DNA of 64,000 bases from an uncultured Bdellovibrionales bacterium (GTDB lineage Bacteria > Bdellovibrionota_C > UBA2361 > SZUA-149 > CAZDWZ01). Positions within the stretch are counted from its first letter, which is position 1; each line of letters begins with the position of its first letter. The stretch spans positions 3,350-67,349 of the forward strand of contig CAYOOT010000006.1 of the NCBI GenBank assembly GCA_964405665.1, given 5' to 3'. Positions 8,024-43,628 of the stretch are shown piece by piece. The notes beneath the pieces were generated by a model. The model was not told the DNA's origin, made no database searches, and worked only from the letters and a program-made list of their open reading frames with translations. The translations under genes were made by a program, and so were the position numbers.

Positions 8024-8944
8024 ATGAGAGAAGTAATTGTTTTAGGTTCAGGACCAGCAGGCCTGACCGCAGCTTTATATATAGCTCGCTCCAATCTTAA
8101 GCCTCTGTTATTTCATGGTCCACTTTCCGGAGGTCAGCTTACCACCACGACAATGGTAGAAAACTTTCCTGGTTTTTCCAAAGGAATCATGGGACCCGAT
8201 TTAATGGAAGAAATGCGCTTACAAGCGGAGCGTTTTGGTACAGAATTTCAGCAAAAAATTATTACTAAAGTAGATTTTTCTAAAAGACCATTTAAAGTTT
8301 TTGCCGATGAAGAAGTTTTCGAAGCCAAATCGATAATTATTGCCACCGGGGCATCGGCAAAAACTTTAAAGCTGGAACGTGAAGCGGAGATGATGGGTTA
8401 TGGTTTGTCCACTTGTGCTACTTGTGACGGAGCATTTTTTAACGGTCAAGAGATTATTGTTATTGGAGGCGGAGATTCTGCTTGTGAAGAAGCGTTATTT
8501 TTAACCAAATTCGGTTCCAGAGTACGTTTGATTCACAGAAGAGATCAATTGCGGGCCTCAAAGATTATGGCGGATCGTGTTTTGGCTCACCCCAAAATAG
8601 AAATGATCTGGAAACATACGATGATTAAACTTTTAGGGGATCAAAAATCAGGCATCACCGGCGCAATTTTAAAAGATACAACCAATGGCAAAGAACAAGA
8701 AATTAAATGTTCTGCAATATTTTATGGTATCGGCCATGTTCCCAATACTCAACTTTTTGCGGGGAGTTTGGAAATGGATGAAAACCAATACTTAATTACC
8801 AAAAACAATTGCACTAAAACAAACATTCCTGGAATATTTGCTTGTGGTGATGTTCAGGATCATGTTTATAGGCAGGCCGTTACGGCAGCAGGTTCGGGTT
8901 GTATGGCGGCTATTGAAGCGGAAAGATGGTTGGCGGAGAATTAA
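8024..8944 (+). CDS. trxB: thioredoxin-disulfide reductase
   Basis: FAD motif VLGSGPAGLTAALY, the redox-active CATCDG, and NADPH motif GGGDSA; 306 aa. Confidence 0.9.
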   Translation: MREVIVLGSGPAGLTAALYIARSNLKPLLFHGPLSGGQLTTTTMVENFPGFSKGIMGPDLMEEMRLQAERFGTEFQQKIITKVDFSKRPFKVFADEEVFEAKSIIIATGASAKTLKLEREAEMMGYGLSTCATCDGAFFNGQEIIVIGGGDSACEEALFLTKFGSRVRLIHRRDQLRASKIMADRVLAHPKIEMIWKHTMIKLLGDQKSGITGAILKDTTNGKEQEIKCSAIFYGIGHVPNTQLFAGSLEMDENQYLITKNNCTKTNIPGIFACGDVQDHVYRQAVTAAGSGCMAAIEAERWLAEN

Positions 8945-9030
8945 ATCTGTAGGGGCAGGTTTTATACCTGCCCGGAACTACAAGGGACCATAGTAAAACG
9001 GGCAGCCATAAAGGCTGCCCCTACAGATTT
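8943..9030. repeat. GC-rich compound palindromic repeat (two hairpins inside an outer inverted repeat); probable bidirectional terminator between trxB and atpE
   Basis: Outer arm aaatctgtaggggcag … ctgcccctacagattt. Inner hairpins gggcagg-ttttata-cctgccc and gggcagcc-ataaag-gctgccc. Member of the GTAGGGGC repeat family seen five times in the window. Confidence 0.7.
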
Positions 9031-9060
9031 AATCTATTTTGTAGTTTCTCCCAATAAAAA

Positions 9061-9375
9061 CTACACCACGCCGATAGCAACAAGAAACATAAATAGAACC
9101 AAGGATTCAATCAGACTCACGCCTAAGATCCATGGTAAAAACATTTGGCCTGCAGCACCAGGGTTTCTGCTAATACTTTCTACTGCGGCAGAAATTACTC
9201 TGCCTTGACCCATAGCACCACCAAATACGGCAATACCTAAAGCTAATTGACCTAGGTTTAAATAACCAGCATGTACTGTTGCTGCATCCTCAGCAAAAGC
9301 AGGTTCTCCTACCAACACCAAAGAAGCCAAGACAACTAACATTAAAGAAGAAAAACGCATACTAATATCCTCCAA
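9061..9375 (-). CDS. atpE: F0F1 ATP synthase subunit c with N-terminal signal-like extension
   Basis: Two-helix proteolipid carrying a GxGxGxG motif (GGAMGQG) and a conserved carboxylate within …LIESLVLFMF. An MRFSSLMLVVLASLVL… hydrophobic extension precedes it. Real start is probably the internal Met at 9358. Confidence 0.8.
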   Translation of the reverse strand: MEDISMRFSSLMLVVLASLVLVGEPAFAEDAATVHAGYLNLGQLALGIAVFGGAMGQGRVISAAVESISRNPGAAGQMFLPWILGVSLIESLVLFMFLVAIGVV

Positions 9376-9499
9376 TTACACGTTCATTATTAACACACCC
9401 CTATTGCAGTAAACTATTTACTTCAATAGAGCTAAACATCTTTTCAAATCTTTACAGGACGAACTTTATCCGTCCCAGAAATAAGGATCAAACACTTAC

Positions 9500-10276: not shown

Positions 10277-10346
10277 CGTTTCCTGTTCATACTTTTACTA
10301 ACGAGCAGGAACTACTACACTATTCCAACCAAGATTAAAAGACTTA

Positions 10347-10757
10347 TTAAGAAAAAAATCCACTTTTCTGTTTATTTACCGACATTATAAGTATGAAAAT
10401 AATGGATAAAAATAAACTTAAAATAAAGCCTATTACAAAGGAGATCATGCTGCTTTGCTGAAAGAGAAATAAAGCCAAACACAATAAAGAAAGAGCAATA
10501 AATTTTAAGATAAAAAATTTATATATTTTAGAAGTTTTTGCTGGATCAATTAAATATTGCGAAAGATTTGACCAGCTCCCTAAATTAGCCCAAGAAAATA
10601 TTTGAGAAATGATAATACCCCGGATTTCGAAGTATTTAGAATTAGTTTCTTTGTAATAAAAATAAGAAAAAACAATTAACAGTATCGAGCTTATAACAAA
10701 CGCAATGTTTATTTGTTGTTTTACATTATTTACCGCAACCTTTTCCATTAAACTCAC
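10347..10757 (-). CDS. small multi-TM protein, possible AtpI/AtpZ-like ATP synthase accessory protein
   Basis: 136-aa polytopic membrane ORF immediately upstream of atpB on the same strand. Assignment rests on position only. Confidence 0.3.
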   Translation of the reverse strand: MSLMEKVAVNNVKQQINIAFVISSILLIVFSYFYYKETNSKYFEIRGIIISQIFSWANLGSWSNLSQYLIDPAKTSKIYKFFILKFIALSLLCLALFLFQQSSMISFVIGFILSLFLSIIFILIMSVNKQKSGFFS

Positions 10758-10935
10758 TAAATTATAAAATTTTTCCTTTTATTACAAGGATCAAAGATTC
10801 CCTTTGTGTCAAATTCCTCTCTTTTGATTTTTTTCATACAACAACAAAAAAAATTTTGAAAAAATTTTTTGATGCAGACAGTTGAATCTCTTGCGCTTAG
10901 ACTTTAAGTAACCTTAACTAAGAGAATTTCCATTT

Positions 10936-10960
10936 GTAATTGTTAACAACTTTCTGTTAG
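10936..10960. promoter_or_regulatory. DnaA-box-like 13-mer (ttaacaactttct) upstream of dnaA
   Basis: Identical 13-mer recurs in the dnaA-dnaN spacer (12788-12800). Confidence 0.35.
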
Positions 10961-11001
10961 TGTCCACCTCCTGTTGGATTCAGATTTTAATTAGGAAGGT
11001 A

Positions 11002-12510
11002 ATGGATAGAGTAGCGGATTTACTAGATTCTCAACTAAACGGTGTTTCTACCTCAACGAAAACCAATTTTAAACCGACAGAAAGTGATATTCCAAATAAA
11101 AATTCAAAAATTAATTTTTCTAATGAGGATTTTAAAGAACTTTGGGAAGAAGCTTGCCATGAGATCAGCAAAGAAATCGATCAACAGCTTTTTAATACCT
11201 GGATAAAAGTACTGAAAATATCAAATTTAGAATTACCCCTTGATAATTCTAAAGAAGCCAAAATTGAATTAACAGCACCAAACAAATTTAGTTGTGCTCA
11301 TATTGAAAAAAATTATCAACAATTAATTGCTGATTCTTTCTCTAAATTACTTTTAGTTAAAATTAAACTACATTTTTGTTTTGATAAACACTTTAGCCCG
11401 GCTAACGATCCTCTTTTAGAAAAAACTGCCACCAGCCCTATTTTAAAAAAGAAAGCTTCCTTGTTTTCTGAAAATAGGTTGCAAAAACCTGATGAAACCA
11501 ATCTTAATCCTAAATATAATTTTTCCAATTTTGTAGTTGGTTCCTGTAATCAATTTGCGCATGCCGTTAGTCTTAAAGTAGCGGAAAGTCCTGGAACTTC
11601 TTTTAATCCTCTCTTTGTTTATGGGGGAGTAGGATTAGGCAAGACCCATCTGGCTAACGCCATCGGTAATTCTACAAAAAGACAAAAGAAGAAAGTATTA
11701 CTGGTTAGTTCTGAAAATTTTGTCAGTGAACTTATCGCTTCCATCAGAAGCAATAAGATGGATTCCTTTAAAAGTAAGTTTCGTTCACTGGATTTATTAA
11801 TTGTTGATGATATTCAATTTATTATTGGCAAAGAACGAACTCAAGAAGAATTTTTCCATACCTTTAATGAACTTTATAATAAGCATAAACAAATAATTAT
11901 CACTTCCGATAAAATGCCCAATGAATTAATTGGACTGGAAGACAGATTGAAAACAAGATTTGCCAGTGGACTTTCTGTTGATTTACAATCTCCTGACTAT
12001 GAAACAAGAGTGGCGATTATTGTTAATAAAGCCGTTGCAGAAAAAGTAAATTTACCGGAAGAAGTTGCCAGACTACTTGCTTGCAATATTACTTCGAATG
12101 TTCGGGAACTAGAGGGAGCAGTAAACCGTTTGTTTGCCCTAAGTTCTGTTAATAAAACTAGTATTGATTTAAAACTGGCTGAAGATGTAATTTCTAGTCT
12201 TTCTTTAAAAAAGAAAACAAAAGAAATTAATTTTGAATTGGTCAAAAAAATAGTTGCTGAGCATTTTAATGTCAGTCTTAATGACATTCTTGGAAAAAGA
12301 AGAACTCAACACATTGCAGCAGCAAGACATGTTTGTATGTATTTTTGCAGAAAGCTGACAAATTATTCTTATCCGGAAATCGGTGCTTACTTTGGCGGAA
12401 GAGATCATTGCACGGCAATTCATGCCTATAAAGTAGTAGTCGAGAAATTAACTCTTGAGAAAAGTTTTTCTGATGAACTAGAAAAATTAGAAAACAAAAT
12501 AACCTCTTAG
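11002..12510 (+). CDS. dnaA: chromosomal replication initiator DnaA
   Basis: AAA+ Walker A GGVGLGKTHL, Walker B LLIVDDIQF, and the C-terminal DNA-binding domain (…HIAAARHVCMYFCRKLT…). Start placed at the ATG at 11002, which has an AGGAAGG RBS, rather than the upstream in-frame Met at 10960. Confidence 0.93.
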   Translation: MDRVADLLDSQLNGVSTSTKTNFKPTESDIPNKNSKINFSNEDFKELWEEACHEISKEIDQQLFNTWIKVLKISNLELPLDNSKEAKIELTAPNKFSCAHIEKNYQQLIADSFSKLLLVKIKLHFCFDKHFSPANDPLLEKTATSPILKKKASLFSENRLQKPDETNLNPKYNFSNFVVGSCNQFAHAVSLKVAESPGTSFNPLFVYGGVGLGKTHLANAIGNSTKRQKKKVLLVSSENFVSELIASIRSNKMDSFKSKFRSLDLLIVDDIQFIIGKERTQEEFFHTFNELYNKHKQIIITSDKMPNELIGLEDRLKTRFASGLSVDLQSPDYETRVAIIVNKAVAEKVNLPEEVARLLACNITSNVRELEGAVNRLFALSSVNKTSIDLKLAEDVISSLSLKKKTKEINFELVKKIVAEHFNVSLNDILGKRRTQHIAAARHVCMYFCRKLTNYSYPEIGAYFGGRDHCTAIHAYKVVVEKLTLEKSFSDELEKLENKITS

Positions 12511-12949
12511 TTTTCCTTACTTTATTTACCCACAAAACAAGCATCTAATAAGCTGTTAATAACTATGGGCTGGGGTGTTAGTAAGTTCTTGTTTGTTTGT
12601 TAAACTGCCGTAACCAAAGATTATTTATAAAAAACATGAAATAATCTTTACCAAAAAAATTTCTAACAAACTGTTAATAACTTTCTAATTTCTCCGCTTA
12701 TTTTGTTAAGAACTACAAGCTTATTAACAGTTTTAATTAATCAACTTTCTTATTTTTAAAGATACTATCTGATCTAAGAGTAACTATTAACAACTTTCTC
12801 GATACAAATTATTCTATCTTTTTCTAATTTAACTATTCACTTACAATCTTTTTAACATTTTTCCTGCCCACTACTACTACTTCTACTAATTTTAATATAT
12901 TATTGTTTAGTATAGAGTTAATAAAAAGTATTAAGGAGTATTTTAAAAG
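12511..12949. other. candidate oriC: AT-rich dnaA-dnaN spacer with repeated 10-13-mer boxes
   Basis: Boxes tgttaataac (12555), ctgttaataactttct (12671), ttattaacag (12721, inverted), tcaactttct (12743) and ctattaacaactttctc (12784). Extremely AT-rich stretches consistent with an unwinding element. Confidence 0.5.
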
Positions 12950-14065
12950 ATGTTATTTTCAATTGAAAAAGAAAAACTGTCTCGTCTTCTTTACTTAGCA
13001 AATTCCATTGTTGAGAAAAAAAATACAATGCCGATATTGGCAAATATTCTTCTTTCTTTAAAAAAAGATAAATTACAATTTTCCGTAACTAATTTAGAAG
13101 TAAGTTTGTTTGCCGAAGTTGATGTGGAATCAAAAGATACAGGCAATACCACGGTTGATGCCAAAGTTTTTTATGAAATAGTCAGAGAGCTTCCTAATGA
13201 GAAAGTAACATTAAAATTAATAGAAGATAAGAGATTGGAAGTTAAATGCGGAAAATCATTGTTTAAAATAAATACTTCCTCTGCTGATGAATTTCCTAAG
13301 GTTGCCGGTATTACTTTGAAAAATCCGGTTTCGATCGATGCAACTTTACTTTATGAAATGTTTGATAAAACATCTTATGCGGTTTCTACCGATGAAGGAC
13401 GGCAAAATATCAATGGAGTGTATGTTGAATTGTTAAACTCCAATAATGAAAACAATCTGCGTTTTGTTTCTACAGATGGACATCGTTTGGCAATAATTGA
13501 AAGACCTGTTACCGGATTCAATGAGTTTAGGCCTGTTATCGTTCCAAGACGTGCCATAGGAGAAATAAAAAAGATTTTAGAGGGCAATGATGGTGCGGCA
13601 AAATTAGAACTAGGAGAGAGCTTTATTACCTTTGAAAGCAGAGGCGTAACTTTAGGAGTACGTTTAGTTGATGGACAATATCCAGATTACTCGCAAGTTG
13701 TTCCTACAAAATGTTCTACTACAGTAAATGTAAATAGAGATGATTTTCTTGCGGCAATTAGAAGAACTTCCTTAATGACAACAGAAAAAAACAAAGCAGT
13801 TAGAATCGGGGTTTATGGAAATACATTAACTGTTTCATCTTCCAGTCAGGAATTTGGTGAAGCCAGTGATGCCATTGAAGTTGAAAAAACTGGTAATGAT
13901 TTAGATATCGGATTTTGCGCCAGATATGTGCAAGAATTACTTGCTTCGATGGATAGCAACCAACAAGTAGTGATGAAATTAGATGGAAATCTTGCACCGG
14001 GATTATTTACCCAGGCTGATAATGAGTCTTATACTTGTATCGTTATGCCGATGCGTTTCGAATAA
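12950..14065 (+). CDS. dnaN: DNA polymerase III beta sliding clamp
   Basis: 371 aa with a three-domain clamp pattern and an N-terminus MLFSIEKEKLSRLLYLANSIVEKKNTMPILANILL typical of DnaN. Position follows dnaA. Confidence 0.93.
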   Translation: MLFSIEKEKLSRLLYLANSIVEKKNTMPILANILLSLKKDKLQFSVTNLEVSLFAEVDVESKDTGNTTVDAKVFYEIVRELPNEKVTLKLIEDKRLEVKCGKSLFKINTSSADEFPKVAGITLKNPVSIDATLLYEMFDKTSYAVSTDEGRQNINGVYVELLNSNNENNLRFVSTDGHRLAIIERPVTGFNEFRPVIVPRRAIGEIKKILEGNDGAAKLELGESFITFESRGVTLGVRLVDGQYPDYSQVVPTKCSTTVNVNRDDFLAAIRRTSLMTTEKNKAVRIGVYGNTLTVSSSSQEFGEASDAIEVEKTGNDLDIGFCARYVQELLASMDSNQQVVMKLDGNLAPGLFTQADNESYTCIVMPMRFE

Positions 14066-14082
14066 AATTAATGTCATTAAAA

Positions 14083-14160
14083 TGTAGGGGCACCCTTTAT
14101 GGGTGCCCGGAATTCCAAAATATATTGGTCAACCGGGCACGCATAAAGGGTGCCCCTACA
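14083..14160. repeat. GC-rich compound palindromic repeat (GTAGGGGCACCC family), two hairpins
   Basis: Hairpin 1: gtaggggcaccc-tttat-gggtgccc. Hairpin 2: ccgggcacgc-ataaa-gggtgcccctac. Lies between dnaN and recF. Confidence 0.7.
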
Positions 14161-14179
14161 AATTTCCATTTTGGTTTTA

Positions 14180-15322
14180 ATGTTCGTCAATAAATTCTAC
14201 CTTAACGGCTTGAGGAACTTAAAAGAACAAGAAGTAACTATTCACAGCCCATTTACCGTAGTTACCGGAAAAAACGGCCAAGGAAAGACTAGCTTTTTAG
14301 AGGGTCTTTATGTTTTATCTTCTACCAAATCATTTCGGACGGCAAAATTAAAAGAAATTATTACTCAAACTGCAGGAATATCTTCCTGTTTTTTAAAAGC
14401 AATGATTACCACCGAAGATGGAGAAAAATTATTAGCCGCTGAAATTTCAAAAGATAAAAAACAATTTTTTATCAATGAAAATAAAGCTAATAAAGTAAAA
14501 GAGTATTTCGGCAAATTAAAAGCGATTGTTTTTACTCCCGATGATTTGCAAATTATTAAGGGTTCTCCCCAATTAAGAAGAGAATTAATTGATAAAAGCA
14601 TTTCTCTGGTCAATTTAGGCTATCTTGAATCATTACTTTTCTATAATGCCGCTTTAAAAAATAGAAACACACTCTTAATTCAAGGAAGAACTGCCAATTA
14701 TTTAGAATTTGAAGTTTGGGATAAATTATTAATTAATTATGGGTTGGAAGTTTTAAAACAGCGACTAAGTTTTTTAAAAGAAATAAAAGATATTTTTTCA
14801 AATTATTACCGTTTAATTTCCGAACGGAGCAAAGAAGAAAAAGTCCAATTTTTGTATCGCAGTGATTTTTTGAACAAAGATTATCAACTGGAAGCGCAAG
14901 CAGATTTTGAAGAAATAGAAACCTTACAGGCCAATTACTGTCAAAGAATTGAGCAAGACCTGAGATTAAAAAGCACAGGAATTGGAATTCATCGCGATAA
15001 TTTAATTATTAAAATAGATACCGGCTTTGGTTTTAAAGATGCTAAAGAAATTGCCTCCCAAGGACAAACCAGAAGTATTTCTCTGGCTTTAAAACTTGCC
15101 TCTGTGGACTTTGTAAAGTTAAAAACAAATATCTCTCCTTTATTATTGCTTGATGATGTGGAATCCGAATTAGATAGCGACAGGAAACAATCACTGATTA
15201 GTTTATTAGAAAATTTTAAAAGCCAGGTTATTTTAACAACAACCGATGATTCGGAAATTAAAAAAATTAAAACAAAGACGGGGATTGATCTGAGAAATAT
15301 TGAAGATGGGTATCTGGAATAA
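14180..15322 (+). CDS. recF: DNA replication/repair protein RecF
   Basis: SMC-like ABC ATPase with N-terminus YLNGLRNL, Walker A GKNGQGKTSFLEG, and signature/Walker B LLLLDDVESELD. Start moved from the tracked 14150 (inside the repeat hairpin) to the ATG at 14180. Confidence 0.9.
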   Translation: MFVNKFYLNGLRNLKEQEVTIHSPFTVVTGKNGQGKTSFLEGLYVLSSTKSFRTAKLKEIITQTAGISSCFLKAMITTEDGEKLLAAEISKDKKQFFINENKANKVKEYFGKLKAIVFTPDDLQIIKGSPQLRRELIDKSISLVNLGYLESLLFYNAALKNRNTLLIQGRTANYLEFEVWDKLLINYGLEVLKQRLSFLKEIKDIFSNYYRLISERSKEEKVQFLYRSDFLNKDYQLEAQADFEEIETLQANYCQRIEQDLRLKSTGIGIHRDNLIIKIDTGFGFKDAKEIASQGQTRSISLALKLASVDFVKLKTNISPLLLLDDVESELDSDRKQSLISLLENFKSQVILTTTDDSEIKKIKTKTGIDLRNIEDGYLE

Positions 15323-15383
15323 TAAATTTCACTTTACTTTTGACTACACAAAAAATTAGGACTAGACTCCTACTAATAAATTT

Positions 15384-17033
15384 ATGCAAAAAGTTTGTGA
15401 ATTAACTCAAGCCCCTTTTACTATTTCGGAATTCGAAGTAGAATTCTGCAGAAAAAATGAAATTCCTCTTCCCACACTCAGTCCTTTTGTCAGACTGCGA
15501 AACTTATTGGTATTTAGAAACAGATCGGATCTTTATCATACAAAATGTGCTTTAAGTGAGAAAAGTATTCTATCTTCTGTTCCGCCGGAGAGTGATTTCA
15601 AAGTCGTTGATATCGATGTTTGGAATTCCGATGCTTGGGATCCTTTAGAGCTGGGCCGGGACTATAATTTTAGTAAACCATTTTTTAAGCAATTCGAAGA
15701 ATTATTAAGAATTACTCCGATTCCCAATCTGGCAGTTATAAAAAGCACTGTGGAAAACAGTGATTATACACATGGAATTCTTGGAGCAAAAAATTGCTAT
15801 TTATTATTTGCTAGCAGTTACAATGAAGATTGTCTTTTTTCCAGAAATATCAATCATTCTAAAAATTTAGTTAACTGTAATTTGGCTCAAAATTCCGAGA
15901 TCTGTTATGACTGTAATAATATTCAAAACGGCTATAATCTAAAATATTGCGCCAATTCTTTTCATTGCTCCGATTCTTACTTTCTTTACAATTGTCAATC
16001 CTGCAGCAATTGTTTTGGTTGCGTTAATTTAAGCAACAAGCAATATCATTACTACAATCAAGCTTTAAAGAAAGAAGAATATCATCAGAAATTGGCGGAT
16101 TTGCAACTGGGAAGTTTCAATTTTATTGAACAGGAAAAGATAAAATTCGATAAATTTAAAGAAAGTTTCCCCATTAAATATTTATTCGGCAAAAGCCTTG
16201 TCGGCTGCAGAGGCAACTTTCTGGCAAACGATAAGAACTGCGATCAATGTTACTTTGTATATGATTCGGAAAATTTAGAATATTGTATCTGGGCAAAGAA
16301 GGCAAAATCATCTCTTTTTCATTGCATGTTCGGATTTAACAGTGAATTGATTTACAATTCTGCCACAGTGGGGGACAGCGCCTATAATATTAAATTTTGC
16401 GCCGATACTTATGAAGGGGTTAATAATTTGGAATATTGTATGTATTGCCAGAGAGGAACCAGCGATTGTTTTGGTTGTGTTGGATTAAAGAAAAATAGTT
16501 ACTGCATTTTAAATAAACAATATTCCAAAGAAGCATACTTTGATTTAGTAAAAAGAATCAAAGAACAGATGAGACAAGCTAAAGAATATGGGCAGTTTTT
16601 TCCGATTTCCTTAAGTCCATTTTATTTTAATCAATCGGAAGCTAATTATTTTCTCCCTTTACCCAAAGCAGAAGTCCTGAAACAAGGTTTTAAGTGGAAA
16701 GAAGATGAAGTAGAAAAGATCGCACAAAAATATCAATTAGCGGATAATATCTCAGAGGTAAGTGATGATATTTTAAATCAAGTTTTGATTTGTTCGGAAT
16801 CAGGGAAAAAATACAAATTAATTAAACCGGAACTTGAATTTTATCGAAAAAATAATGTTCCGATTCCGCGAGTTGCTCCCATGGAAAGATTAAAAGAAAA
16901 AGCGAAAATTCTAAAAATAGAAAAATTACATCCGGGCAATTGTGCAAAATGTCAGCTGGAGTTCGAGACCGCTTATGATCTTAAAACAAACAAAATATAC
17001 TGTGAAGAATGTTTTCAAGAAGAGGTTAGTTGA
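15384..17033 (+). CDS. Cys-rich family protein, copy A (terminal zinc-ribbon modules plus two Cys-rich core modules)
   Basis: 549 aa with more than 40 Cys and no signal peptide or TM helix. Repeated CxxC/CxxCxxC units end in CFGCVNLSNKQYHYYNQ…EEY and CFGCVGLKKNSYCILNKQYSKEAY. C-terminal module: LICSESGKKYKLIKPELEFYRKNNVPIPR…CAKCQ…YCEECF. Paralogous to four other ORFs in this window. Confidence 0.8.
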   Translation: MQKVCELTQAPFTISEFEVEFCRKNEIPLPTLSPFVRLRNLLVFRNRSDLYHTKCALSEKSILSSVPPESDFKVVDIDVWNSDAWDPLELGRDYNFSKPFFKQFEELLRITPIPNLAVIKSTVENSDYTHGILGAKNCYLLFASSYNEDCLFSRNINHSKNLVNCNLAQNSEICYDCNNIQNGYNLKYCANSFHCSDSYFLYNCQSCSNCFGCVNLSNKQYHYYNQALKKEEYHQKLADLQLGSFNFIEQEKIKFDKFKESFPIKYLFGKSLVGCRGNFLANDKNCDQCYFVYDSENLEYCIWAKKAKSSLFHCMFGFNSELIYNSATVGDSAYNIKFCADTYEGVNNLEYCMYCQRGTSDCFGCVGLKKNSYCILNKQYSKEAYFDLVKRIKEQMRQAKEYGQFFPISLSPFYFNQSEANYFLPLPKAEVLKQGFKWKEDEVEKIAQKYQLADNISEVSDDILNQVLICSESGKKYKLIKPELEFYRKNNVPIPRVAPMERLKEKAKILKIEKLHPGNCAKCQLEFETAYDLKTNKIYCEECFQEEVS

Positions 17034-17037
17034 AATT

Positions 17038-18099
17038 ATGAAAAAATATTTATTAATTATCTTATTTTATTTTTTAAGTGCTCTGACCGCAATGGCAGAA
17101 ACGGAAATTAAGATCGGAGTATTGACTGATTTATCAGGTTTGGGAGCATATTACGGAAATCAAACAAGAGTTGGGGCGATGTTAGCCGAGCAGGAAATAA
17201 ACAAGGAAGATAAAAACTTTAAAATAATTTTTGAAGATAGCGGGCTTAAGCCGCCGCAAGCTTTAACAGCAATGCAAAAACTTCTCTATTTTAATAAAGT
17301 GGCAGCCGTTTATGTGGATTTCACTCCAATTGCCACTGCTGTTTCTCCTGTTATCAAGAGCAATAAAAAACTAATGGTTTATTCTGCGGCAGCACGCTCT
17401 GTTGCTTTGGAAAATGAGTATGCCTTTAAAACCTATCTGGATTATCAGCAGGGCTGTGAAACTGTAGCTAAAGAATTAAAAAAAAGAGGTGTTTTGAAAG
17501 TTGGCCTTTTGAAAGCAAATGCTGAATATGCAGAGCTTTGTCTAAACGGCATCAAAAATATTTATCCGGATATTGTGGAATATTCTTATAATAGAGGAGA
17601 TCTTGTTTCATCTCAGGTTTTGGCGATGAAAAATAAGAATATTGAGGTAATATTTAATCCTTCCTATGAGGGGGATTGCGCTAATTCCATTCAAGCGGCA
17701 ACAACAATTAATTATCCGGTAAAATTTGTTTCTGCAGAAGATACTTTTAGTAAAGATCTTGTTGCCAAATACAAAGACCATCTCAATGGTAGCATGTCTT
17801 TTGGACTAAAAAGCTTGCCCCAGGAACTTAAAGATCAAGCAAAGAAACTTCCAGGAGGCGATAAGCTCACAGACTATTACGGTACAGGTTTGGCCATGGC
17901 GCATCTGGAGCAAATGTATCAGACGATTAAAAAATGCGGCAATGAGAATATAACTTGTCAGTTAGAAACCCTAAAAAAAGCGGAAAAGGATAATCGTATC
18001 GGTTTTAAAGGTTGGCAGAACAAAATTGCTGTGCTGAAAACAGAAATTAAAGAATTTAAAAAAGATGCATTTTATCCCATCAATACTCTTGAGAAATAA
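17038..18099 (+). CDS. periplasmic ligand-binding protein, type-1 PBP (Leu/Ile/Val-binding LivK-like), orphan (no cognate permease adjacent)
   Basis: Signal peptide followed by a PBP1 fold pattern (KIGVLTDLSGLGAYYG…). The ATG at 17038 lies 4 nt after the stop of Cys-rich copy A. Confidence 0.75.
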   Translation: MKKYLLIILFYFLSALTAMAETEIKIGVLTDLSGLGAYYGNQTRVGAMLAEQEINKEDKNFKIIFEDSGLKPPQALTAMQKLLYFNKVAAVYVDFTPIATAVSPVIKSNKKLMVYSAAARSVALENEYAFKTYLDYQQGCETVAKELKKRGVLKVGLLKANAEYAELCLNGIKNIYPDIVEYSYNRGDLVSSQVLAMKNKNIEVIFNPSYEGDCANSIQAATTINYPVKFVSAEDTFSKDLVAKYKDHLNGSMSFGLKSLPQELKDQAKKLPGGDKLTDYYGTGLAMAHLEQMYQTIKKCGNENITCQLETLKKAEKDNRIGFKGWQNKIAVLKTEIKEFKKDAFYPINTLEK

Positions 18100-18172
18100 G
18101 TCGGCAAAAGATAGCTTATCTGGAGTACGGACAAGCTTGCTCTACGTTAAAATAATTTTTATATAATGCCGG

Positions 18173-19417
18173 ATGAATAACCTTAGCTCCTTTGATTTAA
18201 CGCATTTTTTCTTAGCAATAAGTATCTTGCTTGTTTTTACACGTTTATTCGGAGCGCTGATGGAGAGATTCCACAAGCCGGCCGTAGTTGGTGAGATCCT
18301 GGGAGGTGTTATTCTTGGCCCCACCATTTTTGGATCTTTTTTCCCAGAAACGTTTAACCTTTTATTTCCGGTCAATGGCCCTCTTGCCTATTCCTGGCAG
18401 GCCTTAATTAATATTTCAGTAATCCTTTTTATTTTTACTTCCGGTTTGGAATTAGAACTCTCGCGGATGCTCAAATATGGAAAAGCAAGTTTAACCGTTG
18501 GTTTATTTGGTTTTTGCATTCCTTTTATATTAGGAGTTACTTTTGTTTGGCTAATTCCTAGTGTCTTAGAACTATCCCCTTTAAAACAAAAATTACCTTT
18601 GGCTCTTTATCTGGGTGTGATTTTATCTATCTCCGCTTTGCCGGTAATTATCAAAACACTAAGTGATTTAAAAATTCTTAAAACTCCAGTTGCGACAACA
18701 ACAATTGGAGCTGCTATTTTTGATGATCTCATTGGCTGGATTATTTTTGCCATTGTTTTAACTCTCTCCGGGCAAACTTTAGAAAACAAATTAAATATTT
18801 ATTCCACTATTATCGTGTTAATAAGTTATATCGTTTTTATGTTATTTATTGGCCGAAAGCTAATTAAAAAAGGTTTATCTCTTATTAAGAATTGGGGCTT
18901 TGATGACGTTACCAGTTATTCCGTAATTCTTGCTTTAATTTTTCTTTCCGCGGCAATCACCGAGTGGTTAGGAATTCATGCGATGTTTGGGGCTTTGATT
19001 GTCGGCATTATTCTATCGGACACTGATCATTTGGAAAGGAAAACAAGTATTTTTTTAAATAAGTTTATTGCCGCATTTTTCTCACCCATATTTTTTGGTT
19101 TTATCGGATTAAGGGCAAATTTTGGTTCTAGCTTTGATCTCAAATTATTTTTAATAATTTTTATTCTTTCTTGTTTAGCAAAAATTGTTGGTGTCACTTT
19201 AGGTGCTTTACTTAGCGGTTTTAAAATAGCAGAAGCCTTTGCGATAAGTTTTGCAATGAATGCCCGAGGAGCGATGGGGATTATCATTACAAATCTTGGT
19301 TTGCAGGCGGGTTTGATTAATAATCAGCTATTTTCCGCATTTATTCTAATGGCTTTAATTACTTCAATCATCAGTGGACCTTTGATTCAATTTAGTCTTT
19401 CCAAGAGGAGAATATAA
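18173..19417 (+). CDS. cation:proton antiporter (CPA2/Kef-NapA type Na+/H+ exchanger)
   Basis: About 12 TM helices and an N-terminal motif …AVVGEILGGVILGPT typical of the Na_H_Exchanger family. Confidence 0.85.
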   Translation: MNNLSSFDLTHFFLAISILLVFTRLFGALMERFHKPAVVGEILGGVILGPTIFGSFFPETFNLLFPVNGPLAYSWQALINISVILFIFTSGLELELSRMLKYGKASLTVGLFGFCIPFILGVTFVWLIPSVLELSPLKQKLPLALYLGVILSISALPVIIKTLSDLKILKTPVATTTIGAAIFDDLIGWIIFAIVLTLSGQTLENKLNIYSTIIVLISYIVFMLFIGRKLIKKGLSLIKNWGFDDVTSYSVILALIFLSAAITEWLGIHAMFGALIVGIILSDTDHLERKTSIFLNKFIAAFFSPIFFGFIGLRANFGSSFDLKLFLIIFILSCLAKIVGVTLGALLSGFKIAEAFAISFAMNARGAMGIIITNLGLQAGLINNQLFSAFILMALITSIISGPLIQFSLSKRRI

Positions 19418-19428
19418 TCTTCCTTTCG

Positions 19429-20499
19429 TTGACAAACTCCGGCTATTATCCGATAGAACTGGGCATGAATGAACAAGCTGCCAATTCTGTTTGGGGAACT
19501 TCGGAAACCAAATATTTCTACGAATTAACTCCGGAGCGTATTTTAGAGGCAGTGGAAACTTTTACGGGCTTGCGTTGTACCGGACGATGTCTTGCACTGA
19601 ACAGTTTTGAGAACCGAGTCTATGAAGTAGAAATTGATGTCGAAGATGAGAAAAAACTTAAAAGCCCCAGTGAGCGTTTTCGAATTGTAAAATTCTATCG
19701 TCCTGGCAGATGGACTGCCGAGCAAATTCTGGAAGAGCATCGATTTTTACTTGATCTTGTGGAATTAGAAATCCCTGTGGTTGCTCCTTTAATTTTTGGC
19801 AATAATGAGACTCTCTTAAAAATTCCTGAATGTAATATTTGCTGCGCTGTATTTCCCAAAGTTGGTGGTAGAAGCCCTGATGAGCTTAGTGCAGAGCAAT
19901 TACCTTTAGTCGGTAGACTTCTTGCCCGAATGCATAATGCCGGTGCGACTAGAAAAGCAGAACAGCGGATTCGACTTACCGCGGAAAATTACGGCCGAGC
20001 AAGTTTAAAATTTCTTCAAGACTCTAAAACACTGCCCCGAGATATTGCAGGAACTTATAGCGATTTGGTTAATCGTCTTTGTGATCTTATTGAGCCGATG
20101 CTTTTAAATGCTGAAGTGCAGCGTATTCATGGAGATTGTCATTTTGGAAATTTACTGTGGGGAAAAGAAGGTCCATTTTGGGTGGATTTTGATGATATGC
20201 TTAATGGCCCTTGTATTCAGGATCTTTGGTTGATTATTCCGGGACGAGATGATTATGCCAAACAACAGCTTTCAATTCTGTTAGAAGCCTATGAGCAGAT
20301 GAGAAAGTTTGATTATCAAAGTCTGAATTTAATCGAACCGCTACGAGCGCTGCGAATGATTCATTTTAGCGGTTGGATTGCCAAGCGCTGGGAAGATCCG
20401 GCTTTTCCTATTGCTTTTGTTGATTTTGGAACGGAGCGTTATTGGGCGGAGCAGATATCTCAATTGCAAGAGCAGTTGCAGTTGATCGAATTATTGTAG
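19429..20499 (+). CDS. stress-response Ser/Thr kinase SrkA/YihE (RdoA family)
   Basis: Aminoglycoside-phosphotransferase-like fold. N-terminal LNSFENRVYEV and catalytic IHGDCHFGNLLW…VDFDD match the YihE/RdoA family. Confidence 0.75.
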   Translation: MTNSGYYPIELGMNEQAANSVWGTSETKYFYELTPERILEAVETFTGLRCTGRCLALNSFENRVYEVEIDVEDEKKLKSPSERFRIVKFYRPGRWTAEQILEEHRFLLDLVELEIPVVAPLIFGNNETLLKIPECNICCAVFPKVGGRSPDELSAEQLPLVGRLLARMHNAGATRKAEQRIRLTAENYGRASLKFLQDSKTLPRDIAGTYSDLVNRLCDLIEPMLLNAEVQRIHGDCHFGNLLWGKEGPFWVDFDDMLNGPCIQDLWLIIPGRDDYAKQQLSILLEAYEQMRKFDYQSLNLIEPLRALRMIHFSGWIAKRWEDPAFPIAFVDFGTERYWAEQISQLQEQLQLIELL

Positions 20500-20525
20500 G
20501 GGCACCCATAAAGGGTGCCCCTACT
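20495..20525. repeat. GC-rich palindromic hairpin repeat (single unit); the srkA-like stop codon TAG lies in the stem
   Basis: gtaggggcaccc-ataaa-gggtgcccctac. Confidence 0.75.
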
Positions 20526-21792
20526 TCAATCTATCTCTTCCCAAAAACAACTTTGGCAATAAATTATATACGGAGCTTTCTCCGGATAAGTAGAAAGGAT
20601 ACTGGAATTGCATTTTTTACAAGTGCGACGGTAAAGTTGGCGCTCGCTTCTTAGGGCCATGCGCATTATATGGCGACAACTTGGGCAGTGCTCGGGTAAG
20701 GGCAGCTCTTTTCTTTGATAAAAAAGCTGTTCTTGGCCAATAATTGCAAATTTTTTCTTACATTCATTACGAGAACAGTTTCTAATTTCAGAATTAAAAT
20801 CCATTTTTCATCTCCTAAATTATTTCTTGTAATATGGGATCCGTTTCGCTTGTTAAGCGCTGCTTCTCATAGTCAGAAGAAAAAAATATCTCTAAATTGT
20901 AAGAACCGTTTTTGATTAATTCTTGACGTAAATGCCTAACAGAATTTTTATAATCTTCTTCGGAAAGAGCTTGATTGAGCAGATGAAATTTTTTATCGGT
21001 AAGAAAAGTGCAACCAAAGCAAGATTCCAATTTTTTGGAATAAGCGCAGAATTCTGAGTCTCGAGAGAGATCGGTATGTAAAAGAAAATTACAGTTATAA
21101 TTTAATGGAGAATGAACGCAATTATAACAAAGCTCATTTTCAAAACAGACTGTATGGTCACAACAAGTTTTATTGCCGTTTGTTTCAATACAATAAAAAC
21201 ATTCTTCCAAGGCATAACCGTCATAACACTGATAACAATCCTTGGCTTCAGTAAGATTATTTCCAATACAATCTTCGGTGCGAAATTGATGAGTGGCTAA
21301 CACTGGCATTTTTCTTTTTAATTCTTCTAATTTCTGAAGACATTGTTCAGGAGTGATTTTTTTAGAAGCGATTTTATATTCTTCCTTGGAAAGTTGCTGA
21401 TTAAATAAACAAAATTCTTTTCTGAGTAAACCATAACATCCCAGACAATTATTGCAGCTATAGCAATCAATACAGAAATCACATTCGATGCAATTGGAAC
21501 AGTTTTGCGAGCGGGAAGTATCGTAACAATAGGCACAATCAATACAATCCACACAAAACTCACAGCCCACACAAAAAGTTAGATCGCTGCAGGACACACA
21601 TTTTCTGGAATAGCGACTGTAGAGTAAATCTTCAGAATAAAAGGCTCCAAAAGTCCAATAACACTTATTGGATTTCACAGCTGTATCGCTATATTCACAA
21701 TTCTCGACTTGCACTTGCTTTAAATTATAGCGCGGCTTCTCTAAGAGTAACTTTTGAAAAGAGTTGATAAATTCTTCGGCAGAGACAAGCAT
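20526..21792 (-). pseudogene. Cys-rich family copy B: N-terminally truncated body (20815-21792) plus a separately framed C-terminal zinc-ribbon module (20526-20804)
   Basis: The 325-aa ORF aligns with the family core and ends …DPILQEII*. Ten nt downstream, a 92-aa ORF encodes exactly the family C-terminal module (CSRNECKKKFAIIGQEQLFYQRKELPLPEHCPSCR…YCQSCFWEE). A 10-nt gap (not a multiple of 3) implies a frameshift. No N-terminal module is found upstream. Confidence 0.6.
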
Positions 21793-28093: not shown

Positions 28094-28104
28094 AGATTGG
28101 AGAT

Positions 28105-28170
28105 ACCGGAGCGCGGACTTTAGTCCGCTAAAAATAGCTAATTCGAGCGGACTAAAGTCCGCGCTCCGGT
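28105..28170. terminator. GC-rich compound palindrome downstream of gyrA (two identical hairpins nested in a 24-nt-arm inverted repeat)
   Basis: accggagcgcggactttagtccgc … gcggactaaagtccgcgctccggt. Each gcggac-ttta-gtccgc is itself a hairpin. Confidence 0.65.
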
Positions 28171-28191
28171 AGAGGCTAATTTAAATTTATT

Positions 28192-29880: not shown

Positions 29881-29986
29881 AATAAGCGAATATACCTAAG
29901 TAATAAGATTAAAAATAGGTCTTTTTCAGGCAAGATCTATATTGAAACAGTATCCTTAAAGATACTGTTTAGTATGCTATAATTAA

Positions 29987-30637: not shown

Positions 30638-30698
30638 TACTACACCTCTTTTTAAATTTGCTTAAAACAATGGGGCCAAACCATTTGGCAAGTATATT

Positions 30699-30831: not shown

Positions 30832-30832
30832 T

Positions 30833-32954: not shown

Positions 32955-32965
32955 AATAAAAAATT

Positions 32966-34093: not shown

Positions 34094-34113
34094 TATTTAT
34101 TTTGGAGTAATTT

Positions 34114-37206: not shown

Positions 37207-37212
37207 TACTTT

Positions 37213-37713
37213 TTAAAACCCAATCCTCCTTTTCTTAGGAGACACTGGCTTTTGTAATTCTTCAATAATCTGAATTATCGCCTTAGCATGCTCATCTGTT
37301 CTTGCTTCAATAGACTTAAGTCTTTTAGCTAAAGCTTCATTAGAAAGTAGAAGCTCTCGAAGTTTGATAAAAGAGCGTATAATTTGAACACTGACAATTA
37401 CGGCTCTTTCACTTTTAAGAACAGCAGAAAGCATTGCCACACCTTGTTCAGTAAAGGCATAAGGTCTATCTCTCCTACCGCCATATTGTTTTCCCATCCC
37501 CAATCTTTTTTCCAATTCCCGAACTTCTTCAATAGATAATTGAAACATAAAGTCATCTGGAAAACGCTCTAGATTTCTCGAAACAGCCTTATTTAAATCT
37601 CTGGTACCAACTTGATAAAAATGTGCAAGATCACTATCGATCATTACTTTTAATCCTCTAATTAAATAAATCTTCTGTTGTATTATCTGAGAAGAAAGCA
37701 ATTCTATTTTCAA
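37213..37713 (-). CDS. ORF6N-domain protein (KilA-N-related DNA-binding, phage-antirepressor-like)
   Basis: IYLIRGLKVMIDSDLAHFYQVGTRDLNKAVSRNLERFPDDFMFQLS…YAFTEQGVAMLSAVLKSERA matches the ORF6N domain pattern. Confidence 0.65.
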   Translation of the reverse strand: MKIELLSSQIIQQKIYLIRGLKVMIDSDLAHFYQVGTRDLNKAVSRNLERFPDDFMFQLSIEEVRELEKRLGMGKQYGGRRDRPYAFTEQGVAMLSAVLKSERAVIVSVQIIRSFIKLRELLLSNEALAKRLKSIEARTDEHAKAIIQIIEELQKPVSPKKRRIGF

Positions 37714-37738
37714 TTAGCACATTACAAAAATAACTATT

Positions 37739-37801
37739 ATACCAGGCACTTACAAACTTGATGTTCCAATTTGGAACATCAAGTTTGTAAGTGCCTGGTA
37801 T
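37739..37801. promoter_or_regulatory. perfect 63-nt palindrome (31-nt arms) upstream of the ORF6N gene; a degenerate second copy lies at 37846-37886
   Basis: ataccaggcacttacaaacttgatgttccaa-t-ttggaacatcaagtttgtaagtgcctggtat. The second copy is tacaaacttgaagttccaatttggaactcaactttgcaa. Shared core TTCCAATTTGGAA. Confidence 0.7.
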
Positions 37802-37981
37802 TCTTAATAGAAACTCATTAGGAAAAACTGCAATAATTTAAATAGGTTACAAACTTGAAGTTCCAATTTGGAACTCAACTTTGCAAAATCTCTAAGATTA
37901 TTATTTTTTCTTGCTGATTATAAATTAGCAATTATTATATTCGCTAAAGCTGAATAAAAGGTACTTCAGAAAAATTATTTT

Positions 37982-39700: not shown

Positions 39701-39721
39701 GCACGAGTTTAAGGAAATATT

Positions 39722-40453: not shown

Positions 40454-40470
40454 TATTATCCATAATAAAT

Positions 40471-40499
40471 GTAGGGGCACCCATAAAGGGTGCCCCTAC
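40471..40499. repeat. GC-rich palindromic hairpin repeat (single unit); the stop codon of the upstream Lrp-like gene lies in the stem
   Basis: gtaggggcaccc-ataaa-gggtgcccctac. Confidence 0.75.
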
Positions 40500-41539: not shown

Positions 41540-41628
41540 TTTTAATTTATCTTATATAGGCAAAATATCAAGTGTTATTTACAATATATTAAATTAGCTT
41601 CAATCTCTTCTTTTATTGAGGAAAGACT

Positions 41629-42498
41629 TTGAAAACTAATTTTGCTTATCCGGCGGCTTTTATTTGTTACATTCTTTGGGGAATCTCCCCTGTTTACTGG
41701 AAACAACTTCAAGAGATTAATCCTCTGGAAGTTCTTTGTTATCGAATTATTTATTCCTTTGTCTTCTTATTTCTTTATTTATTATTTTTTAAACGAAAGA
41801 GAATATTAAACTTTAGCCTATTGGAACTTAAGTCCTCTTTTTTGCCTGCCCTGGCAGTTTCTCTTAATTGGGGTATTTATATTTGGGGTATTAACAATGG
41901 TCATTTAGTGGCTTCCAGTATTGGTTATTTTATTTCTCCGATTATCGGCATCTTAATTGCGGCTAGCTACTTCCAAGAAAAGTTATTTTTTACCGATAAA
42001 ATTGCTCTTTGCTTTGTAATATCGGCGGCAGCAATTCTTTCTCTATCTTATCTTAATGATATCTCCTTGGCATTAGGGCTTGCTATCAGTATTAATATCT
42101 ATGCTGTTTTTAAGAAAAATATCAAACTATGTCCCATTGATAGTATTTTTTTAGAAAGTGAGATTATGCTCATTCCCGCTATAGTTTGTTTGTTGTTTTT
42201 AAAAAATTTTCATTTTTCTGTAAATACAGAACACAGTCAGTTATTTTATATTATCGGATCGGGCCCAGTAACAATGATTCCTCTTTTATTCTTCTCTTAT
42301 GCCGTTAGTAAAATTCCTTTGACCAATATCAGCATGATTCAATTTACAAATCCCAGCATAGTTTTCCTTTTAGGGTATTTTGTTTACGATGAACCAATTC
42401 CCTTGATAAAATTTATTGCCATATTTCTTGTTTGGTTGGGGATTGTTATTTTTGTTCTTGGTAAATCGCTAAAACTGAAAGTTTGCTCAGCAACGTAA
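41629..42498 (+). CDS. EamA/RarD-family (DMT superfamily) permease
   Basis: About 10 TM helices and a RarD-like N-terminus (…ICYILWGISPVYWK…). TTG start with a GAGGAAAG RBS. Confidence 0.7.
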   Translation: MKTNFAYPAAFICYILWGISPVYWKQLQEINPLEVLCYRIIYSFVFLFLYLLFFKRKRILNFSLLELKSSFLPALAVSLNWGIYIWGINNGHLVASSIGYFISPIIGILIAASYFQEKLFFTDKIALCFVISAAAILSLSYLNDISLALGLAISINIYAVFKKNIKLCPIDSIFLESEIMLIPAIVCLLFLKNFHFSVNTEHSQLFYIIGSGPVTMIPLLFFSYAVSKIPLTNISMIQFTNPSIVFLLGYFVYDEPIPLIKFIAIFLVWLGIVIFVLGKSLKLKVCSAT

Positions 42499-42556
42499 TC
42501 TGTGCTTAAAATAATGCCGCACACATAAACTTAGCAATTAAAACCGAGAATTTTTC

Positions 42557-43552
42557 ATGACTAAAATTACTGTCTTAGGTTCTGGGAGTTGGGGAACTGC
42601 TCTTTGTAATCATTTAGCGAAAAAATCCTATCCGCTTACTCTCTGGGGAAGAGACGAAAAAGTTTTAAATGAAATAGTGAATCAGCGCAAAAATTCAAAA
42701 TATTTCCCCGAAATTACATTGGTTGCGGGGATTAATGTAAGTACCAATTTAGAAATTGCGGTGAAAGATGCCGATCTAATAGTCTTTGTTTTACCTTCTT
42801 TTGCAGTGAGAGAAGTTAGCGCTAAAATAAAAGGAAAAATTAAAAAAGGTGCATTAATTGTCAATACAGCAAAAGGTTTAGAAAAAACATCTCTTAAAAC
42901 ATTGTCTAAGGTTTTAAAAGAAGAATTAGGTAGTGATCAGAAAATTTCTGTTTTATCAGGACCAAGCTTTGCTCAAGAAGTTTTATTGGGGTTGCCTACC
43001 GCGGTGACTGTAGCTGCCAGTGATATTGAAATAGCTAAGCAAGTAGCTAGCATTTTTCATTCAGAAAGTTTTAGAGTGTATTCTTCCAAAGATATAACCG
43101 GCGTTGAGTTTAGTGGAGTGATAAAAAATGTTTTGGCCATTGCCTCAGGAGTGATTGAGGGCATGGGGATGGGAACAAATTCCCGAGCAGCCTTAATTAC
43201 CAGGGGGCTGGTGGAGATGAGGAGATTGGTTGTGGCACTGGGTGGTGAGCAAGAAACTGTAATTGGCTTAAGTGGGTTAGGAGATTTGTTACTGACAGCC
43301 ACAGGAGAATTAAGCAGAAATTATCAAGTGGGATTGAGATTAGGTCGTGGTGAAAAATTAGAGGATATTCTGAAAAATATTGGACAAGTTGCCGAAGGGG
43401 TTTTTGTTGCCCCAATTATTAAAGAATTGGCAGCTAAGAATAAAGTGGAAATGCCGATTGTCGAACAAGTTTGCGCGATTCTTGATGGAACATCTTCTGT
43501 CAAAGATGCGGTGAAGAATCTTCTTAATCGTAGTCCCAAAATAGAGATGTAA
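42557..43552 (+). CDS. gpsA: NAD(P)H-dependent glycerol-3-phosphate dehydrogenase
   Basis: N-terminal ITVLGSGSWGTALC Rossmann motif and GpsA catalytic-region conservation; 331 aa. Confidence 0.9.
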   Translation: MTKITVLGSGSWGTALCNHLAKKSYPLTLWGRDEKVLNEIVNQRKNSKYFPEITLVAGINVSTNLEIAVKDADLIVFVLPSFAVREVSAKIKGKIKKGALIVNTAKGLEKTSLKTLSKVLKEELGSDQKISVLSGPSFAQEVLLGLPTAVTVAASDIEIAKQVASIFHSESFRVYSSKDITGVEFSGVIKNVLAIASGVIEGMGMGTNSRAALITRGLVEMRRLVVALGGEQETVIGLSGLGDLLLTATGELSRNYQVGLRLGRGEKLEDILKNIGQVAEGVFVAPIIKELAAKNKVEMPIVEQVCAILDGTSSVKDAVKNLLNRSPKIEM

Positions 43553-43555
43553 GGC

Positions 43556-43628
43556 TTGTATGGGGGCAGGTTTTATACCTGCCCGTTTTATCTAGATATT
43601 ACGGGCACCCATAAAGGGTGCCCCTACA
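43556..43628. repeat. GC-rich compound palindromic repeat (variant gtatgggggcagg hairpin plus canonical gggcaccc-ataaa-gggtgcccctac hairpin)
   Basis: Lies between convergent gpsA and the DUF1003 gene. Same architecture as the copies at 8943 and 14083. Confidence 0.7.

Follow-up and report, generated by a model that had tools for sequence, protein, structure and literature searches.

The question raised by this locus is the nature of five palindromic elements, each at the 3′ end of a gene, in a 64-kb stretch of contig CAYOOT010000006.1 from an uncultured Bdellovibrionales bacterium. The whole stretch is referred to here as the window, and positions are counted from its first base. An earlier note on this DNA had proposed a dispersed element resembling repetitive extragenic palindromes (REPs) or bacterial interspersed mosaic elements (BIMEs), possibly mobilisable and doubling as a bidirectional terminator. 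In our view, the five elements are very probably a population of GTAG-tagged REPs, and the genome that carries them is Bdellovibrionota-like, with a G+C content of about 36%. We favour this reading because of their anatomy and strong folds, their placement in non-coding DNA, their match to a published REP type, the association of that type with genes for REP-associated tyrosine transposases (RAYTs) elsewhere and the turnover of sites between relatives.

The repeating unit is a hairpin of 25–27 nt with a 5′ GTAG foot, an 8-bp stem and a TTTAT loop (Table 1). Across the aligned unit ends the frame T-GTAG-GGGCA-nnn-TTTAT-nnn-TGCCC-G is invariant. The stem base is GGG/CCC in all units of the window, and the inner three stem positions differ from unit to unit, with each change compensated in the opposite arm (GGT/ACC, CCC/GGG and GCC/GGC). 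GTAG stands directly at the foot of the 8-bp stem in nine of the ten unit ends; the tenth is the left foot of the 43558 heterodimer, which is degenerate and reads GTATGG (GTA[TG]G), the right CTAC of that element being intact.

Three of the copies are compound. They had been described as an outer inverted repeat enclosing a second hairpin, but are instead composed of two inverted units with their GTAG feet outward and a spacer of 18–26 nt between them. Such inverted doublets with a short spacer are characteristic of REP doublets forming hairpins (REPINs), and two of the three fold as single-stranded DNA (ssDNA) into one long hairpin, the 8949 doublet at −32.4 kcal/mol (z = −9.7) and the 14084 doublet at −37.7 kcal/mol (z = −12.2). 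The 43558 heterodimer folds as two separate hairpins. The ssDNA folds of all of the elements lie between −15.6 and −37.7 kcal/mol, with z from −5.4 to −12.2. In the 8949 doublet the inverted repeat runs out to 8940–9033 (ATTAAATCT / AGATTTAAT).

The other two copies are single hairpins carrying a foot at either end. The identity of their stems and ATAAA loop, already reported in the earlier note, extends over the whole element, and the loop reads ATAAA on the plus strand in both. A stretch of 23 nt is identical between one unit of the 8949 doublet and one of the 43558 heterodimer (8952–8974 and 43563–43585). The G+C content is lower than the 65–70% given previously, at 50–62% for whole elements and about 64% for the unit, compared with 35.7% for the window.

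Table 1. Elements interpreted here as GTAG-tagged REPs, and other features of the window (ORF, open reading frame).
Feature	Coordinates	Length	Make-up	Junction	Neighbouring genes
REP doublet, head-to-head, REPIN-like	8949–9024	76 nt	Left unit GTAG-GGGCAGGT-TTTAT-ACCTGCCC; right unit GGGCAGCC-ATAAA-GGCTGCCC-CTAC; spacer 26 nt; both feet intact	Convergent	trxB (ends 8944) / atpE (stop codon at 9061, minus strand)
REP doublet, head-to-head	14084–14159	76 nt	Both units of GGGCACCC type; one mismatch in right unit	Tandem	dnaN (stop codon 14063–14065) / recF (probable ATG 14180)
Double-foot single REP	20496–20524	29 nt	GTAG-GGGCACCC-ATAAA-GGGTGCCC-CTAC	Convergent	SrkA-like kinase / unknown gene (20815–21792, minus strand)
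Double-foot single REP	40471–40499	29 nt	29/29 identical to 20496–20524 copy	Tandem, minus strand	Lrp/AsnC-like gene / alaX-like gene (probable start 40453)
Head-to-head heterodimer	43558–43627		Left unit of GGGCAGGT type; right unit of GGGCACCC type; spacer 18 nt	Convergent	gpsA (ends 43552) / DUF1003 gene (43655–44359)
Second palindromic doublet, outside the family	28104–28171		TACC-GGAGCGCGGACTTTAGTCCGC-18 nt-GCGGACTAAAGTCCGCGCTCC-GGTA		After second of two ~825-aa ORFs (25604–28093)
Perfect palindrome	37739–37801		31-nt arms (ATACCAGGCACTTACAAACTTGATGTTCCAA / complement), 1 nt between		ORF6N-domain gene (37213–37713, minus strand) / 572-aa gene
Third, partial arm	37847–37874		56 nt beyond the palindrome		As above
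Likely replication-origin region	10757–12950				dnaA-sized ORF (10960–12510), then dnaN
Direct repeats in dnaA–dnaN spacer	12532–12564, 12650–12682	33 nt each	Ending CTGTTAATAACT
Inverted repeat in dnaA–dnaN spacer	12668–12733

The family is well above chance expectation. With up to two mismatches allowed, GTAGGGGCACCC has 10 matches in the window against 0.94 expected, and none of 100 shuffled sequences reaches 10; a match at 59487, inside a gene, is probably due to chance. For the second stem type, GGGCAGGTTTTATACCTGCCC, there are two exact matches against an expectation of 0. The window contains eight distinct perfect GC-rich hairpins with a stem of at least 7 bp, seven of which are members of the family, and shuffled sequences contain 0–2. 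All five copies given in the earlier note are present, in numbers far above those of shuffled sequence. The resemblance between copies does not continue past the element borders, and the genes on either side are not related to one another, which for practical purposes excludes a local segmental duplication of one region; we found nothing in favour of such an event. Segmental duplication, together with a lack of further copies, had been named previously as the outcome that would speak against a dispersed element, and related copies are in fact found in a relative and in many other genomes (see below).

A location at gene ends and strong hairpins might also be expected of independent intrinsic terminators, or of chance palindromes, which had come to resemble each other by convergence. 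The identity of 25–29 nt between copies, together with the match count in shuffled sequence, goes beyond what independent terminators would show, as had been argued from the stems. Read in the direction of transcription, none of the five elements has a T-run directly after its hairpins, and a terminator-pattern scan of the window gave no excess (13 found versus 10.4 expected); canonical intrinsic terminators were rejected on these grounds, and the suggestion of a bidirectional terminator is not borne out. The scan flags inner hairpins only, on the minus strand (9020–9000 and 14108–14088). The first of these stems is on the far side of its element from the minus-strand gene atpE, and there is no minus-strand gene end near the second. 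Given, furthermore, that the same unit is found at other sites in a close relative and beside RAYT-like genes in many phyla, we consider convergence to be effectively refuted. A search of the whole window against Rfam gave no matches at gathering thresholds, and scans of the window for transfer RNA and transfer-messenger RNA found nothing.

The distribution of the elements in the window is uneven. The non-coding share of the window is 7.8%, and it holds all five elements (eight units). They occupy three of eight convergent junctions, two of 36 tandem junctions and none of seven divergent junctions, and the enrichment at convergent pairs that had been put forward for checking is seen here (3/8 versus 2/43, one-sided Fisher p = 0.023), albeit in a small sample. 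One copy had been said to split dnaN from recF, which the 14084 doublet does, and others to lie between convergent genes; this is true of three sites, but the 40471 copy is at a tandem junction. As also observed previously, two stop codons lie within the hairpins. That of the SrkA-like kinase gene (20497–20499) is the TAG of the GTAG foot, and that of the minus-strand Lrp/AsnC-like gene (40496–40498) sits in the CTAC foot. The longest ORF calls of recF and alaX begin within a repeat, and the family matches of both genes begin about 10 codons after the longest-ORF start, so that recF probably starts at 14180 and alaX at 40453.

These properties have precedents. Di Nocera et al. (2013; PMC3733652) defined a GTAG-tagged REP superfamily, with GT[AG]G as the general form of the tetranucleotide, whose units form head-to-head and tail-to-tail dimers, favour convergent and unidirectional gene ends and supply TAG stop codons from the foot. 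The window elements are likewise GC-rich stem-loops with a GTAG end, extragenic and present at five loci in 64 kb. Quentin et al. (2018; PMC6006769) described the REP type of TnpA-REP subclass 2.4 (equivalent to RAYT group 4), in which GTAG is combined with a stem base of three G–C pairs. In that subclass REPs are also inserted in frame into the transposase gene, and ‘double foot’ forms are explained by central deletion of an inverted dimer; the type is reported from Cyanobacteria, Bacteroidetes and scattered phyla. The GGG/CCC stem base and the two 29-nt double-foot copies place the window units with this subclass, and the REP/BIME-like element of the earlier note can accordingly be sharpened to GTAG-tagged REP units arranged as head-to-head doublets and double-foot singles.

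The agreement extends to detail. REPs of subclass 2.4 or group 4 (PMC6006769, PMC5581495) share with the window the GTAG foot, the three G–C pairs and often a GTAGGGGC start; some members have an 8-bp stem with a TTTAT loop, and both inverted dimers and double-foot forms of 28–29 nt with 12-bp stems occur. In Table S1 of Quentin et al. GTAGGGGC appears 105 times, and the examples examined are all in subclass 2.4 rows; they include the double-foot form GTAGGGGCACAGCGCGCTGTGCCCCTAC and GTAGGGACAGACTTTATGTCTGTCC, which has the same 8-bp stem and a TTTAT loop. The subclass and the present unit are also alike in being patchily distributed over many phyla and in having units in frame inside the transposase gene elsewhere. 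The anatomy, placement habits, double-foot forms and in-gene insertions are therefore all already described for GTAG REPs. The differences are that the cognate gene is not found in the 64-kb window and that the host is Bdellovibrionota-like, the word ‘Bdellovibrio’ being absent from both papers. With eight units in 64 kb, the window looks more densely populated than group 4, for which 14 occurrences of flanking 16-mers are given (PMC5581495), although this is an extrapolation from 64 kb.

Other systems are less close. The REPINs of Pseudomonas fluorescens and other gammaproteobacteria (PMC3116915; RAYT groups 2 and 3) resemble the window elements in consisting of inverted REPs with a short spacer that form one long hairpin, and they too are extragenic and dispersed, with singletons representing decayed doublets, but the unit sequence and the RAYT group are different. 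Group 2 and 3 REPINs are reported to be inherited vertically within a lineage, whereas the unit pattern of the window recurs across phyla. The REPs and BIMEs of Escherichia coli share the GTAG foot, the GC-rich palindrome and the location at gene ends, and the E. coli RayT (YafM) is an HUH/Y1 enzyme that binds a folded single strand. However, the E. coli palindromes are bulged and imperfect and are organized in BIME mosaics with IHF or gyrase sites, whereas the window stems are perfect and short. The subterminal hairpins of IS200/IS605 elements, with a 5′ tetranucleotide in guide position that is read by a Y1 HUH transposase, are similar in layout, but the window units are free-standing, with no transposase between them and no adjacent tnpA or tnpB. 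Two further candidates were rejected: a CRISPR array, as the spacing is irregular, and an integron attC site, as there is no R′/R″ core.

Comparison with relatives provides information on the history of the sites. By DnaN, the nearest named relatives are metagenome-assembled genomes labelled Bdellovibrionota, Oligoflexia and ‘Proteobacteria’, with 58–65% identity. A closer relative is L091, a 7.2-kb Logan contig with a DnaN that is 87% identical to that of the window. In L091 dnaN runs into recF (overlap TAATG) and the junction is free of any element; the window has 114 extra bases there, which include the doublet. The kinase gene of L091 (75% identical) also ends without an element. In turn, L091 has its own tail-to-tail unit pair after recF (CGGGCGAG...CTCGCCCCTAC / GTAGGGGCAGGTTTAAAACCTGCCCGG), where the window has nothing. 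The family is therefore common to both genomes but occupies different sites, and the two empty sites in L091 lend support to the mobility proposed in the earlier note, or at least to turnover. Judged from this sequence comparison, presence or absence differs at orthologous sites in a way that could reflect either gain or loss. No unit was found in the 14–21 kb around dnaA–dnaN–recF in the relatives at 65% and 58% identity, in which part of the gene order is as in the window.

The gene order around these sites also varies. It is recF–gyrB–gyrA–gpsA in loci L099 and L100, and in L091 the kinase gene directly follows recF. The window has four extra ORFs (15384–19417) between recF and the kinase gene, and two more between the kinase gene and the first of two ORFs of about 825 aa (23003). 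The latter are presumed from their size and the gene order in L099 and L100 to be gyrB and gyrA, and gpsA lies 14 kb further on.

The unit occurs far beyond these relatives. A scan of bacteria and archaea with one genome per species (596 Gb) used the pattern GGGCANNNATAAANNNTGCCCCTAC, which has 19 fixed bases, and returned at least 88 stretches compared with about four expected under an assumed uniform base composition. Among the matches listed, at least a dozen phyla are represented, often with several matches per genome; the labels include Bacteroidota, Chloroflexota, Cyanobacteriota, Planctomycetota, Deinococcota, Bacillota, Pseudomonadota, Desulfobacterota, Patescibacteria, Omnitrophota and Spirochaetota, besides others. 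In these same matches the free stem positions are Watson–Crick paired in 250 of 291 cells with more than 12 compensating combinations, and an inverted partner lies upstream of 28 of the 97 units, two of the 97 being double-foot forms. Identical 25-mers such as GGGCAGGTATAAAACCTGCCCCTAC are shared by assemblies of Bacteroidaceae, Clostridiaceae, Melainabacteria and Spirochaetaceae and by the present genome. A scan of viral contigs gave five stretches only, and carriage by phages is thus no feature of the family. A literature search for the literal unit sequence returned unrelated primer matches only.

RAYT-like genes came to light in a motif scan (H-u-H ... Y-x-x-x-N-P) of all ORFs in the loci with the pattern. 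Two HUH/Y1 proteins were found beside units, in L064 (SAR202) and L048 (Clostridia). They are homologous to each other (E = 3e-40) and match the NCBIfam family ‘REP-associated tyrosine transposase’ with E = 9e-17 and 6e-13, respectively; with E. coli RayT as the probe there is only a weak match, to the L048 protein (E = 1e-4). The gene in L064 has units on both sides, at 2665 and 3406. In L048 the reading frame of the gene runs through a whole doublet, which separates the HUH motif from the tyrosine motif and is translated as VGAGFMSAH...RADTRPAPT. Units are also in frame within a RAYT-like gene in L097 and L098, and the L098 gene holds the unit GTAGGGGCACCCTTTATGGGTGCCC, identical at 25 of 25 positions to 14084–14108 of the window, with a related unit downstream.

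A large protein collection contains more than 7200 homologues of the RAYT-like proteins, among which RayT is a frequent name given by the Joint Genome Institute. Of the best 120, 50 have a VGA...APT insert between the HUH and tyrosine motifs, which is a translated REP doublet (for example VGAPLVGAL...RAPIKGAPT). As the chimeric RayT query included peptides translated from the window units, the recovery of such proteins was biased and we use it only as evidence that they exist. Unit-bearing RayT genes were confirmed at the DNA level. The same unit type thus accompanies RAYT genes in other genomes.

These observations on other genomes suggest how the elements most probably spread. A single-copy HUH/Y1 enzyme of TnpA-REP subclass 2.4 (RAYT group 4), encoded elsewhere in the genome, would bind the folded unit on ssDNA through the stem base, the loop and the GTAG foot. 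It would then cut and rejoin the strand beside the unit, and units or doublets would occasionally be copied into other gene-end spacers. The model for the cleavage is provided by the enzymes of groups 2 and 3, which bind a folded single strand, recognize it by its foot, by irregularities in the stem or by its loop, and cut at CT or CA beside the REP. Doublets (REPINs) are the form thought to be copied. Insertions would persist at the 3′ ends of genes because they do little harm there, and the TAG of the foot can stand in for a stop codon. We infer that the double-foot copies arose by deletion. The two units of a doublet would supply GGGCACCC as a direct repeat, and a deletion running from one repeat to the other would remove the centre; collapse of a GGGCACCC+GGGCACCC doublet in this way yields exactly the double-foot sequence in Table 1. 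The cognate enzyme is presumably encoded in this genome and still copying the elements.

Several points weigh against this explanation. One group concerns the empty sites. The relative differs by 13–25% in protein sequence, so that an ‘empty site’ could be a loss rather than a gain. At dnaN–recF the extra DNA amounts to 114 nt, more than the 76-nt doublet, and has the 7-bp sequence TTAATGT as a direct repeat on either side (14068–14074 and 14177–14183), which IS200-type chemistry does not predict. The repeat may have arisen by duplication of the target, or by a duplication that preserved both the stop and the start codons, the latter being explicable because the dnaN stop and the recF start, which overlap as TAATG in L091, are both needed.

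A target duplication would fit a miniature inverted-repeat element that was moved by a DDE transposase and has ends that are merely REP-like, and so would the 8940–9033 copy, in which a 35-nt terminal inverted repeat extends 9 nt past the GTAG feet. We nevertheless consider such an element very improbable. The other four copies have no flanking direct repeats, the AT-rich outer extension is not common to the copies, and conservation is confined to precisely the GTAG-hairpin unit that accompanies Y1/HUH genes elsewhere, with TTAATGT being explicable by the need to keep both codons.

The remaining points against the proposed copying of REPs relate to the enzyme and to copy number. The L064 and L048 proteins score 61 and 49 bits, which is under the NCBIfam cut-off of 80. 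The RAYT gene looked for following the earlier note is not in the 64-kb window, where a motif scan, phmmer and a profile of 120 RayT homologues all gave no RAYT-like ORF. The biochemistry found in the literature covers RAYT groups 2 and 3, with none found for subclass 2.4, and the cleavage model is borrowed from those groups. The copy number is known from 64 kb only, and any genome-wide figure is an extrapolation.

The missing gene is consistent with relic or domesticated REPs, spread by a RAYT that has possibly since been lost and kept as RNA hairpins at 3′ ends for stability or control of read-through. Some species that bear REPs have no REPtrons (PMC3733652), and mRNA stabilization and termination are long-standing proposals for the function of REPs (PMC3733652). 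The location of all five copies at 3′ gene ends, the convergent enrichment and the two supplied stop codons can be read in the same way. On the other hand, the copies are very alike (the identical 29-mers and the 23-nt identical units) and their sites differ from those in L091, which argues for recent copying rather than old relics, and the hairpins have neither T-runs nor an excess in the terminator scan. We regard relic status as doubtful, although it is compatible with, and not opposed to, a population of GTAG-tagged REPs; hairpins in 3′ untranslated regions may in either case have a putative secondary role in protecting transcripts or attenuating read-through.

A more tentative proposal concerns the origin of the system. 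Both the window genome and the 87% relative carry the units, which are absent from the sampled dnaA–dnaN–recF regions of the 65% and 58% relatives, and it is conceivable on this basis, if rather speculative, that a subclass 2.4 REP–RAYT system was gained recently by horizontal transfer, with enzyme and repeat moving together between phyla and the REPINs now expanding at an unusually high density for this RAYT group.

The window has other repeats and features which lie outside the GTAG family. The second palindromic doublet (Table 1) is constructed like the inverted doublets of the family but has the unit GGAG-CGCGGAC-TTTA-GTCCGC, with a GGAG/CTCC rather than a GTAG foot, and folds at −35.8 kcal/mol (z = −12). 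A 21-mer from it was found in two viral contigs and more than 120 metagenome stretches, in many cases as inverted doublets. A Y1/HUH gene in L159 (PNHVH ... YVEQNP) has doublets of about 105 nt on both sides, and its protein scores 35 bits against Pfam Y1_Tnp (above the cut-off) and 75.8 bits against the NCBIfam REP tyrosine transposase (cut-off 80). The doublet is probably a REPIN of a second RAYT class. A perfect palindrome and a third, partial arm are found beside a gene for a 572-aa protein that has weak treble-clef zinc-finger matches at both ends. A likely replication-origin region lies at 10757–12950: its dnaA-sized ORF is in the position held by dnaA in L091, L099 and L100, the cumulative GC skew has its minimum near 10–12 kb, and the AT-rich spacer contains direct and inverted repeats. 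The 20496 and 40471 copies have the same orientation relative to fork movement because both lie on one side of the presumed origin; with n = 2, we draw no conclusion from this.

The elements extend the host range of GTAG REPs to a Bdellovibrionota-like lineage. They account for two oddities of the region, namely ORF calls that start inside a repeat (recF and alaX) and stop codons that are supplied by a repeat, and for annotation purposes such hairpins are better labelled as REP/REPIN repeats than as terminators or unknown RNAs. At the dnaN–recF junction, the window and L091 allow a clean comparison of a filled with an empty site. If the full genome holds a matching RAYT, it would constitute a compact natural system for the study of subclass 2.4 enzymes and of the origin of double-foot REPs. 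Should the tentative proposal of recent gain be true, the shared 25-mers (GGGCAGGTATAAAACCTGCCCCTAC) would reflect repeated transfer between phyla, unlike the strictly vertical REPINs of groups 2 and 3.

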